Shown here: positions 7,353 to 11,017 of the stretch, piece by piece
Layout: each line of letters opens with the position of its first letter
Position numbering within the stretch: position 1 is the stretch's first letter
Assembly: GCA_048939765.1 (NCBI GenBank)
Contig: JBHLPF010000017.1
Location: 10,742-74,741, forward strand
Length of the DNA: 64,000 bases
Reading direction: 5' to 3'
Source of the DNA: Promethearchaeota archaeon
Lineage (GTDB): Archaea; Asgardarchaeota; Thorarchaeia; Thorarchaeales; Thorarchaeaceae
Notes under the pieces: generated by a model
Database searches by the model: none
What the model saw: only the letters and a program-made list of their open reading frames with translations
What the model was told of the DNA's origin: nothing
Position numbers and translations under genes: made by a program

Positions 7353-9566
7353 CTAGGTTCGTTTGTAGATCCATCGACTCCAAGAGCCTATAGATGGCAT
7401 TTCCTCCGGCATACCTTTCCTTGCTCGAATCTCCAGAATCTTCTCTTCCTGCATATTTCCAGGGACTGGTTCAAAGCCTCGAAACTCGTAACCGAAGAAG
7501 CTTCTACCGGCAGCAGCACTGCGAAATTCATCTGCAATGCCAATTGTTTCCGCTGTCGGTAATGTGCCTCTGATTGTGACTGTGTCTTCCTCAGCCTCAA
7601 TCGTAACAATCTGACCTCGATGACCAGTAAGCACTTTGATGATGCCCCCCTGCGTGTCAGTTGGAGTCTTGATGTCCGCATTCAGAATTGGCTCGTAGAG
7701 ACCTGAAGCCCCAGTGAGGAAGCTCATGTTAAGACCAGAGCTGGTCATCGTAGCGACCTCGTTGTAGCCAGTGTGCGCAGGATCAGTGTGAACTGTTGCA
7801 TCTGTAAGGACTACCTTCACACCCATGACGGGCTCTCTTGCTATCGGTCCTTGGTCTATGAACTCACGAAATGTGGTCTCGAGATATGAGTAGATTCTGT
7901 CGAATCGCTGCACACCGCTCATGGCATCAACAAGCATGCTTGATTCGTAGATATCCAGAATCTTGCGGGCTTCCTTCGCATCCCATCCTGCCTCGTCACG
8001 GAGAATGGCTGCACGCTCGCGCGAGTTCATGTCCCTCGTAATCCGCTTTTTCCTGATGAGCTCAATAGCCTTCTCATCTAGGGGCTCTACATACAGTCTT
8101 AGACGATTATGACCGTTTGGAGATTTGGTGTGGAACTCTTGGCCACGTTCAGTAATCTTCTCACGATAGACAATGATTGGCTCAGATATGATGATCTTCA
8201 CCTGTTCATTGATACGTTTGGTCAGAATCTCAATTTGAAGAGGGTCAATCCCATCCAGTCTGTATTCTCCGGACTCCTTGTCGTGAATGAATCTCGCTGT
8301 TGGGTCAGCCATGATCCACTTTGAAACGACCTCACCTAGCTTCGCGATGTCCTGAGGATCAACTGGCTTGATGCTTCTGCTGACTACAGGTTCGCTTACA
8401 TATTCAATGGCTTCAAAGCCATGCATCTCAGAGTCCACTGCTACAAAAGACTCTCCGGATGGACACATAAATCCGAACACAGAGAAGAGATTCCCTGCTG
8501 GAACTTCTTCCATTGGCAGAATGTCAGTAATCTCTTGTACGCCAAGTCGTTTCACAGTGACGCTTTTCCTCATGTTGACAAGACGGATTGACTGTCCTGA
8601 TTTCACAGTACCTGAGAAAACTCTACCAATCAGTGTGGGCCTCTTGCTCTTTGGGTCGACAAAGATCTTGGTGATCATTCCGAGTAGCGGGCCTTTGCGA
8701 TCACACTCAAGAAGTGCCTTGCCTTCTGTGCTGTCAAGATCACCTTTCCAGATTCTCGGAATCTTGTAGGCTTGTGCTTCCTTTGGGTTGGGGAGGTGGT
8801 GTACTATCATCTCAAGAAGGGCATCATCCAGTGGGAGGTTCTCACGAAGCCACATCTCGTCGCCCTCGTTGTATTTCTCGAATACTACTTTGGCAGGAAC
8901 ACCTTTCTTTGCGAGCGTCTTATTTGTGAAAGCCCAACCGGTCTTTGCGCTTCCAATTGCAACACTGCCTTCCTCAAAGTTGACTCTCCATTCCTTTGCA
9001 TATTCAGGAGGAGCAACTTTCTTGATGAGTTCATTGACCTTTGAAGCTATGATGACAAGTCGCTCTCCAACCTTCTCAGGGGGGAGCTTCAACTCATTGA
9101 TCAATCTGTCCACTTTGTTAATGAAGAGGACTGGCTTGCATGCCTCGCCGCCTACTGCAAGTCGGATGTTCGTTTCAGTCTGCGTCATGACTCCCTCAAG
9201 TGCATCAACCAGAATGACGGCACCATCACTAGCGCGCAATGCACGTGAAACTTCTCCTGTGAAAGAGAGGTGTCCAGGCGTATCGGACAGCTGTACTAAA
9301 TACTCTTCTCCATCAACTTCGAAGTTTAGCAGAACAACAGAGGTGAAGATCGTGATTCCTCTTTCCTGCTCCTCGTCGTCACTGTCTGTCATAAGAGCCT
9401 GCCCAGCGGCTGCGTCACTCATGAGACCTGCACGGCGCATCAGATAGTCTGTTGTTGTTGTCTTGCCGTGATCGATGTGAGCGCTGATAGAGATGATTCT
9501 CTTATGCTCATAGTCATCTGACATTATTAGTCTCTTAATTGCGTCTGGGTCCTTTATCTTGACCAA
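7353..9566 (-). CDS. fusA: Elongation factor 2 family GTPase, probably the Asgard paralog aEF-2p
   Basis: AHIDHGKTT, RGITI, DTPGH, NKVD; domain IV loop HTDPAHTG rather than HxDxxHRG; not in a ribosomal protein operon. Confidence 0.9.
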   Translation of the reverse strand: MVKIKDPDAIKRLIMSDDYEHKRIISISAHIDHGKTTTTDYLMRRAGLMSDAAAGQALMTDSDDEEQERGITIFTSVVLLNFEVDGEEYLVQLSDTPGHLSFTGEVSRALRASDGAVILVDALEGVMTQTETNIRLAVGGEACKPVLFINKVDRLINELKLPPEKVGERLVIIASKVNELIKKVAPPEYAKEWRVNFEEGSVAIGSAKTGWAFTNKTLAKKGVPAKVVFEKYNEGDEMWLRENLPLDDALLEMIVHHLPNPKEAQAYKIPRIWKGDLDSTEGKALLECDRKGPLLGMITKIFVDPKSKRPTLIGRVFSGTVKSGQSIRLVNMRKSVTVKRLGVQEITDILPMEEVPAGNLFSVFGFMCPSGESFVAVDSEMHGFEAIEYVSEPVVSRSIKPVDPQDIAKLGEVVSKWIMADPTARFIHDKESGEYRLDGIDPLQIEILTKRINEQVKIIISEPIIVYREKITERGQEFHTKSPNGHNRLRLYVEPLDEKAIELIRKKRITRDMNSRERAAILRDEAGWDAKEARKILDIYESSMLVDAMSGVQRFDRIYSYLETTFREFIDQGPIAREPVMGVKVVLTDATVHTDPAHTGYNEVATMTSSGLNMSFLTGASGLYEPILNADIKTPTDTQGGIIKVLTGHRGQIVTIEAEEDTVTIRGTLPTAETIGIADEFRSAAAGRSFFGYEFRGFEPVPGNMQEEKILEIRARKGMPEEMPSIGSWSRWIYKRT

Positions 9567-9707: not shown

Positions 9708-10493
9708 CTATTTTGTGGCTACTACAACCATACGCTCAGAATTTGCGGCATATGGCATCTTCGGAAGTTTGTTTTGCCCGTAGAGTTCGCTCCTGGAAAA
9801 GCCCACCTGTCTTAGGAGATCGCGAATTTCAAGTGCAGTGTACATTCGGATGTCGTTGCCAGCGAGTGCATCCTCATTCATCTCGATTATGCGGCCATTA
9901 GCCACATCAATGAATGATGCTGGCCGTCCTCTCAGAACTCCCGCTGGTGCATCGAGTACATGAGGCTCACTTAACAGATAGCCATCTTCTAGCTTTGTCC
10001 ATGTCTTATGGAAACGCGGAAGATTGTAGGGATTCATCAGGTCAAGCAGAAGCTTCCCGCCTTCGACGAGCGCATTGAATGACCCCTCAAGAACACGCTT
10101 GTTCTCATCATGATTGAAAAAGCCAAAGCTGTGACTCAGAAGCACTGCAGCATCAAACTGGCTTGGAAAATCAATCTCCCTCATGTCACCCATTGAGAGA
10201 TTCACCTCAAGATTGGCCTCAGCTGCCTTCTCCTTAGCAATTTTAATCAGCCTTGTTGAAAGGTCGAATCCAGAAACATTGATTCCGCGTTCTGCAAAAA
10301 GGATGCTCTGATCACCGGCTCCACAGGCTATGTCGAGCAGCTTCTTTCCTTTCTTCAAGCTCAAGGCATCCAGGCAGAATTCAACTACCATCTCATCATA
10401 TTGTTGAATTCCCGGAATGATTTGACGATATTTGACCCTGAACACTTCAGCCCAGAATTCATCCCAGCCAAAATCAACGCGCTCCATGTTCAC
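9708..10493 (-). CDS. Class I SAM-dependent methyltransferase
   Basis: LLDIACGAG motif I, GFDLS, GDMR, FDAAV, SFGFF. Confidence 0.92.
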   Translation of the reverse strand: MNMERVDFGWDEFWAEVFRVKYRQIIPGIQQYDEMVVEFCLDALSLKKGKKLLDIACGAGDQSILFAERGINVSGFDLSTRLIKIAKEKAAEANLEVNLSMGDMREIDFPSQFDAAVLLSHSFGFFNHDENKRVLEGSFNALVEGGKLLLDLMNPYNLPRFHKTWTKLEDGYLLSEPHVLDAPAGVLRGRPASFIDVANGRIIEMNEDALAGNDIRMYTALEIRDLLRQVGFSRSELYGQNKLPKMPYAANSERMVVVATK

Positions 10494-10565
10494 TCACTTG
10501 GCGATTCTTCTAAGTGCAGGTTGATATGAAGCTTGTTATGAGAATGACAGCTATTGTCGTGATCG

Positions 10566-10676
10566 AAAAGCAGCAGGAGGTGGAGAAGACCCGCAGCCTG
10601 TTGATCTCCGCCGGGAGGGACGCAGACTGAAGCAACAGGAACACAAAGCGTGAACGCGGGCCTTGCGTCTCCATCG
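10566..10676 (-). ncRNA. Candidate ~105-nt structured ncRNA of unknown family
   Basis: Terminal stems UGGAG/CUCCA and AAGGCCCGCG/UGCGGGUCUU (G-U pairs indicate the minus strand), inner CCUGUUG/CAACAGG and CUCC/GGAG; TTTATA about 25 nt upstream and a U4 tract downstream. Confidence 0.55.
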
Positions 10677-10843
10677 TTTTGAGACGGCCGTTTGGCCTAT
10701 AAATCTATAGGTTTTCGCTAAAATGCGCGCGCTCTTCGAAAAATCGAAAGTTCTTTCTTTTAGTTTTATATAGCAAAAATCGAAGTCAAAAGTCCGCTTT
10801 TGGCTGAAGGAGAAATCTATTGAACGGAAACAGCGTAAAAGGG

Positions 10844-10919
10844 TGGTAGCCCCGCCAGGACTCGAACCTGGGTCCAGTGGGCCAGAACCACTGATGCTGG
10901 ACCGCTACACCACGGGGCT
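10844..10919 (-). tRNA. tRNA-Gln (anticodon CUG), encoded CCA, no intron
   Basis: Reverse complement folds as a cloverleaf: AGCCCCG/CGGGGCT acceptor, AGTGG-TTCTGGC-CCACT anticodon arm, CCAGG-TTCGAGT-CCTGG T arm, 3' ACCA. Confidence 0.97.
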
Positions 10920-11017
10920 ATTGATAGAGGACCGATCTCTGGAGCTTCGCTCGTTCTGAACACCAAATTATCTTTTCGGTCAAGCTCGCATGAAAGAAGT
11001 ACATGGCAAATAGTAGA

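Follow-up and report, generated by a model that had tools for sequence, protein, structure and literature searches.

A 64,000-nt stretch of DNA from a Promethearchaeota archaeon of the family Thorarchaeaceae (assembly GCA_048939765.1, contig JBHLPF010000017.1, positions 10,742 to 74,741; hereafter the window) contains, just downstream of its tRNA-Gln gene, what its sequence features indicate is the gene for an independently transcribed, structured small RNA (sRNA) of ~95-105 nt (from a core of ~91 nt up to 107 nt) that is confined to Thorarchaeota. The sRNA probably acts in trans as an antisense RNA, masking the ribosome-binding site of a gene for a 90-amino-acid (90-aa) protein and repressing its translation. 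We infer the expression of the sRNA, its pairing in vivo and the direction of regulation. Coordinates are positions in the window unless a contig or locus is named, and the sRNA is read on the minus strand; the features are collected in Table 1.

At the sequence level, the marks of an independent unit are a conserved TATA box of its own, a T-rich tract at its end and a separate promoter for the downstream gene. The first-pass annotation, made from the letters of the window, had proposed an unannotated, self-contained small RNA gene with TTTATA near 10700 and a start ~25 nt beyond it. Both the box and the start, at GGAGA, are found where they were placed, and the proposal is supported by promoter, terminator tract, covariation and copy number. 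Even in distant genera, ~23 nt of the promoter block are 100% identical. All homologues have a T-rich tract immediately after the 3' strand of the closing helix, P1, although the sequence of the tract itself is not conserved; the 3' tail, with the CUUUU end that had already been noted, is a probable oligo-U termination region. The TATA box of the sRNA lies within a perfect palindrome, CCTATA-GATT-TATAGG, which is also 100% conserved in distant genera and which may be a regulator-binding site or a bidirectional element.

Folded on its own, the sRNA has a minimum free energy (MFE) of -40.3 kcal/mol (z = -1.78; 8 of 200 shuffles are as good). This is only mildly better than shuffled sequence, and so the case for the sRNA rests on comparison across genomes. 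A BLAST-type search of relatives finds it in 15 of the genus's 16 genomes, and most genera of the family have it as well; the most conserved stretch is 10641-10581. Thirty homologues were extracted and aligned (alignment A1), and a covariance model (R1) was built with a hand-set structure. Because of indels, RNAalifold recovers only parts of the fold from plain MAFFT alignments; thus, the structure was supplied, the alignment was rebuilt with the model (alignment A2, 38 sequences) and pairs were counted in it. In A2, an alignment fitted to the R1 model, 93% of cells pair, versus 86% in column shuffles and 43-52% with the partners slid, and two-sided changes are found in 17 of 28 pairs, a number that none of 500 shuffles reaches.

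Helices P1 and P3 covary. The search for homologues and covariation that the annotation had suggested yields homologues across the family with compensatory changes in both: P1a is GACAG/CUGUC instead of GGAGA/UCUCC in two genera, P1b contains UUCG/CGAA or UCCG/CGGA in place of CCCG/CGGG, and P3 can read CCUAUUC/GAAUA-GG or CCUGCUG/CUGCAGG instead of CCUGUUG/CAACAGG. The 7-bp P3 arm is exactly as first described. The terminal stem does have the 4-nt bulge described, which reads CGCA, but comprises 13 bp (5 + 8) and not 15. Elsewhere the bulge is 2-5 nt long (GA, AUUCA, AUA and others in other genera); the stretch is paired in L065, and one genus pairs it fully within P1. A suggested alternative fold or pseudoknot between GACGCA and UGCGUC (10669-10664 with 10624-10619) is complementary in this genome, but is not conserved beyond the genus, outside which the bulge changes to CACA and its partner to UACGUC, two changes that do not compensate each other. 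The variable region between P1 and P3 spans ~11-35 nt and forms a hairpin in most genera, with none in L015, L017 and L028. The register of the apical helix shifts in some genera; the loop is still at the apex in all, and CCUCCCGGCG is invariant in 38 of 38 aligned homologues.

Searched against its own genome, R1 returns the window copy as the only significant match. In a sample of 151 genomes from the phylum, the sRNA is present in all 26 genomes of the family (14 genera), in one copy each, and R1 with strict filters finds it in none of 124 genomes from 26 other families; five of these 124 were searched again under normal filters and are still negative. In a sister-family genome (G037), an open reading frame (ORF) directly follows tRNA-Gln, with no such RNA and no R1 match. 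When GTDB species representatives were scanned with a gapped pattern and the matches passed to R1, 44 copies were confirmed; their records are labelled Candidatus Thorarchaeota, Promethearchaeota or uncultured archaeon, with the exception of one labelled Hermodarchaeota, where the copy scores the same under R1 as a Thorarchaeota copy. Matches of the gapped pattern in bacteria and methanogens were rejected by R1. One assembly (G010, L011:1650-1860) has an N run and, beyond it, part of a second copy of the 3' end of the sRNA; this is probably an assembly join and not a true duplication.

The complement of the seed, CGCCGGGAGG, has three sites in the 3.37-Mb genome: the sRNA gene, the gene of a sibling sRNA (contig C98) and the leader of the 90-aa gene (contig C69). 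In the C69 leader, a hairpin, CUGUC...GACAG, lies ~25 nt past a TATA box and carries CCGCCGGGAGGG in its loop; this is the exact 12-nt complement of the seed CCCUCCCGGCGG (10619-10608). The motif lies 8-12 nt before the start codon and contains the Shine-Dalgarno (SD) sequence GGGAGG, ~9 nt before the AUG. One more match to the seed complement, on contig C47, lies in a coding-region hairpin, has one mismatch and was judged to be due to chance.

The 90-codon ORF represents a genuine gene: 48 of the family's 61 genomes, 22 of the 23 high-quality ones among them, have it at 65-100% identity, and the database relatives of its product are Thorarchaeota hypothetical proteins only. The protein has no Pfam family, no significant Foldseek match in the PDB and no informative neighbour in the ESM Atlas; its AlphaFold model is alpha-beta4-alpha, with a mean pLDDT of 75.6.

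Among ~47 orthologous leaders, drawn from 16 genera, all but one have the target motif, C[G/A]CCGGGAGG, in the same position, while its flanks vary. The lone exceptional leader reads CTGCCGGGAGG, with one mismatch. In all but one of the same set, CCGCCGGGAGG(G) overlaps the SD of the 90-aa gene, and most per-sequence leader folds place the motif in a hairpin loop. Contiguous complementarity between sRNA and leader is 10-13 nt long in 27 of the 27 genomes with both partners. Two genomes have matched changes in trans: in G029 the sRNA has GGCGA facing UCGCC in the leader, and in G134 GUCCUCCC faces GGGAGGAC. For this genome, the predicted interaction has a hybrid energy of -28.4 kcal/mol, opening costs of +9.0 and +9.0 and a net energy of -10.4 kcal/mol. 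The loop bases of both RNAs are predicted to be unpaired, those of the sRNA with probability 0.91-1.0.

The sibling sRNA (Table 1) carries the same seed in its apical region, GUCCUCCCGGCGGC. Its start, GG(C/U)GUCC, lies ~25 nt past a TATA-like box of its own, and its two stems contain many G-U pairs; as these would turn into A-C mismatches on the opposite strand, they fix the strand that is transcribed. A 14-mer of the sibling, GTCCTCCCGGCGGC, is found in 32 of the 61 family genomes, spread over 10 of 16 genera, versus 0 for a reversed control. The small hairpin CGUC[CUCCC]GGCG is common to the sibling and the window sRNA; two differently built RNAs with one seed are the pattern expected of sibling sRNAs. 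On the same site of the leader, the sibling would pair over up to 14 bp, one G-U included, and it probably acts there as well.

These observations fit a mechanism in which P1 and P3 would hold up an apical hairpin that displays the invariant CCCUCCCGGCGG. The apical loop of the sRNA would make a loop-loop contact with the hairpin loop of the leader, and a duplex of 10-13 bp would then form over the ribosome-binding site; initiation would be blocked and the 90-aa gene repressed. A duplex over the entire SD makes repression a likelier outcome than activation.

Several points weigh against this reading. Covariation in the inner stem of the leader hairpin is modest (77.5% paired; 8 of 500 shuffles are as good). 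Four genomes (G027, G071, G124 and G158) have GGCGA in the sRNA without a matching change in the leader; being unmatched at the outermost pair, they suggest that the 12th pair is dispensable and that the core is 10-11 bp. Of the paired bases, five or six (CCUCC:GGAGG) are generic anti-SD:SD pairing, which leaves the CCGCC:GGCGG extension and the flanking C/G as the specific part. With half of the complementarity generic, the match in a single genome is weak, and the case rests on the joint conservation of both sides. The sRNA's own apical stem (CGUC/GGCG) also needs the GGCG of the seed, and this requirement could account for the invariance in the absence of any target. The conservation of P1, P3 and the GAGUUU junction exceeds the need of a mere scaffold for the seed, and these parts may bind protein. 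In many genomes, moreover, the 3' strand of tRNA-Asn is identical to the seed 12-mer.

Other features of the leader and of seed-related sequences can be set beside these. The TATA box of the 90-aa gene is flanked by two CGT[GT]TAC repeats, which are likely to be a transcription-factor site; with this repeat-flanked promoter, the gene appears to be controlled at two levels. In genus g5 (L216, L218 and L219; genomes G161, G168 and G020), a GGTATAT box is followed by a hairpin and then by CCGCCGGGAGGAC, 13 nt before an AUG. This leader-like region is a possible second seed target in that genus and hints at a small regulon. At the end of contig C113 in genome G028 (L250:230-377), there is a tandem 15-nt repeat, CCGCCGGGAGGACCA, in at least 8 copies; it is read here as a putative coding 5-residue repeat, not a sponge, and it explains the apparent excess of 11-mer matches in that genome.

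Further 11-mer matches belong to tRNA-Asn(GUU) genes that contain several introns, and fall at their 3' ends. The seed corresponds to the T-stem 3' strand plus the acceptor 3' strand of this tRNA, and the leader motif corresponds to the acceptor and T-stem 5' strands. Among 17 tRNA-Asn-type 3' ends in the family, 10 have CCUCC, 3 have CCUGC (including that of this genome, C68:26271-26286) and 4 have CCUAC. With CCUCC in 10 of 17, the identity with the seed is frequent but not conserved. The tRNA-Asn(GUU) genes on the minus strand of contig C68 of G000 (~26470-26270) and at L200:196-331:- have several introns and were missed by ARAGORN; that of this genome has four introns by eye, one of them in the T-loop.

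Three other accounts of the conserved hairpin and its complement have to be weighed against trans-acting repression. The sRNA could be a protein-bound structural RNA, as a ribonucleoprotein component or a protein sponge, with the complementarity to mRNA secondary or coincidental; its shared CGUC[C(C)UCCC]GGCG hairpin would bind, for instance, a KH protein, another C-rich-binding protein or a factor recognising the 16S anti-SD. The same small hairpin in two differently built sRNAs would fit this, as would the single, housekeeping-like copy in every sampled genome and the conservation of P1b (ACCCG/CGGGU), P3 and the GAGUUU junction beyond what seed display needs; the strong conservation of these last parts suggests an additional protein partner. 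We nevertheless consider a purely protein-bound role unlikely: it leaves unexplained both an exact complement with five non-SD bases, invariant in one leader across 16 genera, and the matched changes in G029 and G134, and the neighbourhood (Arf-like GTPase, generic class I methyltransferase, EF-2 paralogue), syntenic without specific signal, offers no candidate protein. A site in DNA is the second account. The 12-bp motif lies ~15-55 bp downstream of three promoters, those of the sRNA, the sibling and the 90-aa gene, and could be a transcription-factor operator at all three loci, with the orientation of the motif immaterial and no RNA pairing involved; the 90-aa gene does have other control at the DNA level, in the repeats flanking its TATA box. 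That is distinctly improbable, given that the motif sits at an RNA hairpin apex in all three transcripts, with stems that covary or hold G-U pairs possible on the transcribed strand only, and that its position in the mRNA is that of the SD, correctly spaced from the AUG. The third account starts from tRNA-Asn(GUU): the sRNA would derive from or mimic its 3' half, and the duplex, as a copy of the acceptor/T helix, would be recognised by a factor that binds tRNA. Ten of the 17 tRNA-Asn-type 3' ends do read CCTCCCGGCGGC (gene structure read in L200), the sRNA has CCUGUU ~20 nt 5' of the seed as in the anticodon loop of tRNA-Asn, and the chance of an 11-mer match to any tRNA is estimated at ~1 in 1000, an estimate to be read with the reservation that acceptor stems often read GCCGCCG and T-stems GGAGG, so that matches arise by chance more often. 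The T-stem, however, varies (CCUCC, CCUGC or CCUAC) even within a genus and is CCUGC in this very genome, whereas seed and leader are invariant, and the sRNA has no T-loop, no D-arm and no tRNA score at any threshold; such a derivation seems quite improbable to us. The resemblance may be coincidence, a trace of origin or mimicry. In its strongest form, the seed-leader duplex would be a functional mimic of the coaxial acceptor/T-stem helix of tRNA-Asn(GUU), base for base as in many Thorarchaeota, a proposal that we regard as highly doubtful. If it were true, a tRNA-Asn-binding factor would read a circuit made up of the sRNA pair and the 90-aa gene, and the expression of a lineage-specific protein would be coupled to tRNA-Asn metabolism; we know of no archaeal RNA-RNA mimic of a tRNA of this kind.

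Two readings place the function of the locus in an adjacent or overlapping coding sequence, and known RNA classes can be compared at the same time. The downstream gene encodes a class I S-adenosylmethionine-dependent methyltransferase, and the sRNA might be its cis-leader or riboswitch: in 28 of 30 loci the methyltransferase lies 3' of the sRNA and on its strand, the fold, a closed one with several helices and with invariant bases in its loops, is aptamer-like, and no orthologue of the enzyme was found in five other-family genomes of the phylum (best matches, 27-34% identity). The chance of this is very slim. The methyltransferase gene carries a conserved promoter motif of its own, set at a constant distance from the start codon, the gap between sRNA and motif ranges over 67-213 nt and holds ~1 kb of unrelated DNA in L022, the T-rich tract directly after P1 speaks against a leader, and there is no Rfam riboswitch match at the sRNA. 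As the whole neighbourhood is syntenic family-wide, adjacency to the methyltransferase is uninformative on function. A small protein-coding gene, in a 54-aa ORF on the minus strand or in ORFs of 30-38 aa on the plus strand, has practically no probability left, the coding reading being refuted by comparison of homologues. In this genome, an ATG at 10674 does open the 54-codon frame, but 15 of 38 homologues lack a start codon at that site, many contain in-frame stops, lengths differ between genera by 1 or 2 nt (non-multiples of three), and conservation ends where P1 ends, not at the end of the ORF; the codon-like conservation that would have favoured this frame is not seen. With respect to known RNAs, Rfam 15 gives no match in 10400-10950, at gathering thresholds or even at E<=10, except tRNA-Gln, apart from two chance rows elsewhere. 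ARAGORN likewise lists only the neighbouring tRNA-Gln(CUG), and both it and the Rfam tRNA model are silent on the sRNA. These searches, which the annotation had recommended, bear out its view that the RNA has no T-loop and matches no signal recognition particle (SRP), tRNA or C/D pattern.

More specific identities were tried and rejected. For a tRNA, tRNA-Sec or an intron-containing or split tRNA, the T-loop is missing and the CUUCAGU loop (would-be anticodon UCA) varies freely between genera. For an H/ACA guide, the junction has no more than 1-3 nt on its 3' side, reading the alignment by eye reveals no GA/AG kink-turn, and the 3' trinucleotide that would be the box varies (ACC, ACA, AUU, ACU, CUC and others). 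C/D boxes are absent: the sole C-box-like string, CGAUGGA, lies upstream of the RNA and elsewhere reads GUUGGA or GUCGGA. A replacement for SRP or RNase P RNA was discarded because canonical Archaea_SRP and RNaseP_arch are present in this genome and its relatives. As a possible antisense guide to rRNA, the apical region was compared with the contig carrying the rRNA operon using RNAduplex, which gives irregular duplexes and no clean site.

Table 1. Features of the sRNA locus, its neighbours, the sibling sRNA and the 90-aa gene
Feature	Position	Strand	Basis or remark
TTTATA box	10703-10698	minus	sequence; 25 nt before GGAGA (10672) in nearly all homologues
Promoter palindrome CCTATAGATTTATAGG around TTTATA box	10695..10710	minus	block 100% identical in distant genera
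sRNA structured core, 91 nt, closed by P1	10582..10672	minus	R1 model, 102.8 bits; covariation
P1a 5' strand GGAGA, pairs with UCUCC 10582-10586	10668..10672	minus	95.8% of cells paired
P1 5' bulge CGCA	10664..10667	minus	length and sequence differ between genera
P1b 5' strand AGGCCCGC, partner GCGGGUCU 10587-10594	10656..10663	minus	8/8 pairs with two-sided changes
Variable region, optional P2 hairpin, ends in semi-conserved GAGUUU-like junction	10640..10655	minus	
P3 5' strand CCUGUUG, pairs with CAACAGG 10597-10603	10633..10639	minus	6/7 pairs with two-sided changes
Apical arm: 5-nt bulge, irregular helix GUCU-G-CGUC / GGCG-G-AGAU, 6-nt loop CCUCCC	10604..10632	minus	MFE and centroid fold
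Seed CCCUCCCGGCGG	10608..10619	minus	includes invariant CCUCCCGGCG; complementary to leader of 90-aa gene
3' tail with pyrimidine/U tract, ending CUUUU (10570-10566); probable termination region	10566..10581	minus	T-rich tract in all homologues
tRNA-Gln(CUG), upstream neighbour	10844..10919	minus	ARAGORN and Rfam; adjoins sRNA in 18/22 homologous loci scanned
Class I methyltransferase gene, downstream neighbour	9708-10493	minus	
Methyltransferase promoter motif CATAACAAGCTTCATATCAA	10521..10540	minus	~40 nt before methyltransferase start codon
Sibling sRNA, ~65-70 nt	G000 contig C98, ~4300-4225 (L247:1463-1541)	minus	TATA-like box, stems, U-rich tail
90-aa gene	G000 contig C69, 7571-7900 (L151:1069-1400), start codon at 7840	minus	

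The order Arf-like GTPase, tRNA-Gln, sRNA, methyltransferase and EF-2 paralogue is syntenic throughout the family. The motif before the methyltransferase start codon, CAT[GA]ACAAGCTTCATATC, is present in almost all genera and is probably a TATA region with its transcription factor B recognition element (BRE), or a regulator site, of the methyltransferase gene. The enzyme is 60-93% identical across the family and has only the distant best matches given above in the five other-family Asgard genomes; it may be lineage-specific too. Another GC-rich structured candidate, Element A, lies 787 nt before the start of the window (G000 contig C87, 9817-9955, minus strand; L038:818-956) and has a CCCCCCUCCU tract and a CCACCUCCU end. 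A relationship to the sRNA finds no support: R1 does not match it and its C-rich tract differs.

The kind of mechanism proposed here is known; the RNA family and the circuit are new. RsaE and RoxS are structured bacterial sRNAs in which conserved C-rich loops pair with G-rich SD regions, and some of them are siblings with one seed. The Thorarchaeota sRNA resembles them in having a C-rich loop complementary to an SD and a sibling with a common seed. It differs from these bacterial RNAs, which are unrelated in sequence and have broad regulons, in that it has one dominant conserved predicted target and a seed extending 5-6 nt beyond the anti-SD. In the plasmid antisense RNAs CopA and CopT, kissing loops nucleate pairing and an extended duplex then blocks translation; that pair is cis-encoded and fully complementary, whereas the Thorarchaeota partners are encoded in trans, on different contigs, with a match of 10-13 nt. 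The archaeal precedent is sRNA162 of Methanosarcina mazei, a trans-acting sRNA with a single-stranded region that masks an mRNA's ribosome-binding site (PMC3510493). The likeness to sRNA162, that of a trans-encoded sRNA pairing at the ribosome-binding site of an mRNA, is one of principle: there is no sequence or structural similarity, and the lineage here is Asgard (Thorarchaeota). An unstructured linker does the pairing in sRNA162, whereas the seed of the Thorarchaeota sRNA would lie in an apical loop facing a hairpin loop of the target; sRNA162 has been tested experimentally, and the Thorarchaeota sRNA is known from sequence alone. No sRNA regulator in Asgard archaea was found in the literature searched.

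No prokaryotes known are closer to eukaryotes than the Asgard archaea, most of which are not genetically tractable. The covariance model can be used to annotate the sRNA in Thorarchaeota assemblies. The 90-aa protein, found only in Thorarchaeota, is marked as tightly controlled by a repeat-flanked promoter, an SD held in a hairpin and two candidate sRNAs. Together, a single-copy sRNA present throughout the family, a sibling that shares its seed and a conserved mRNA partner would make up a concrete, testable post-transcriptional circuit in this lineage.

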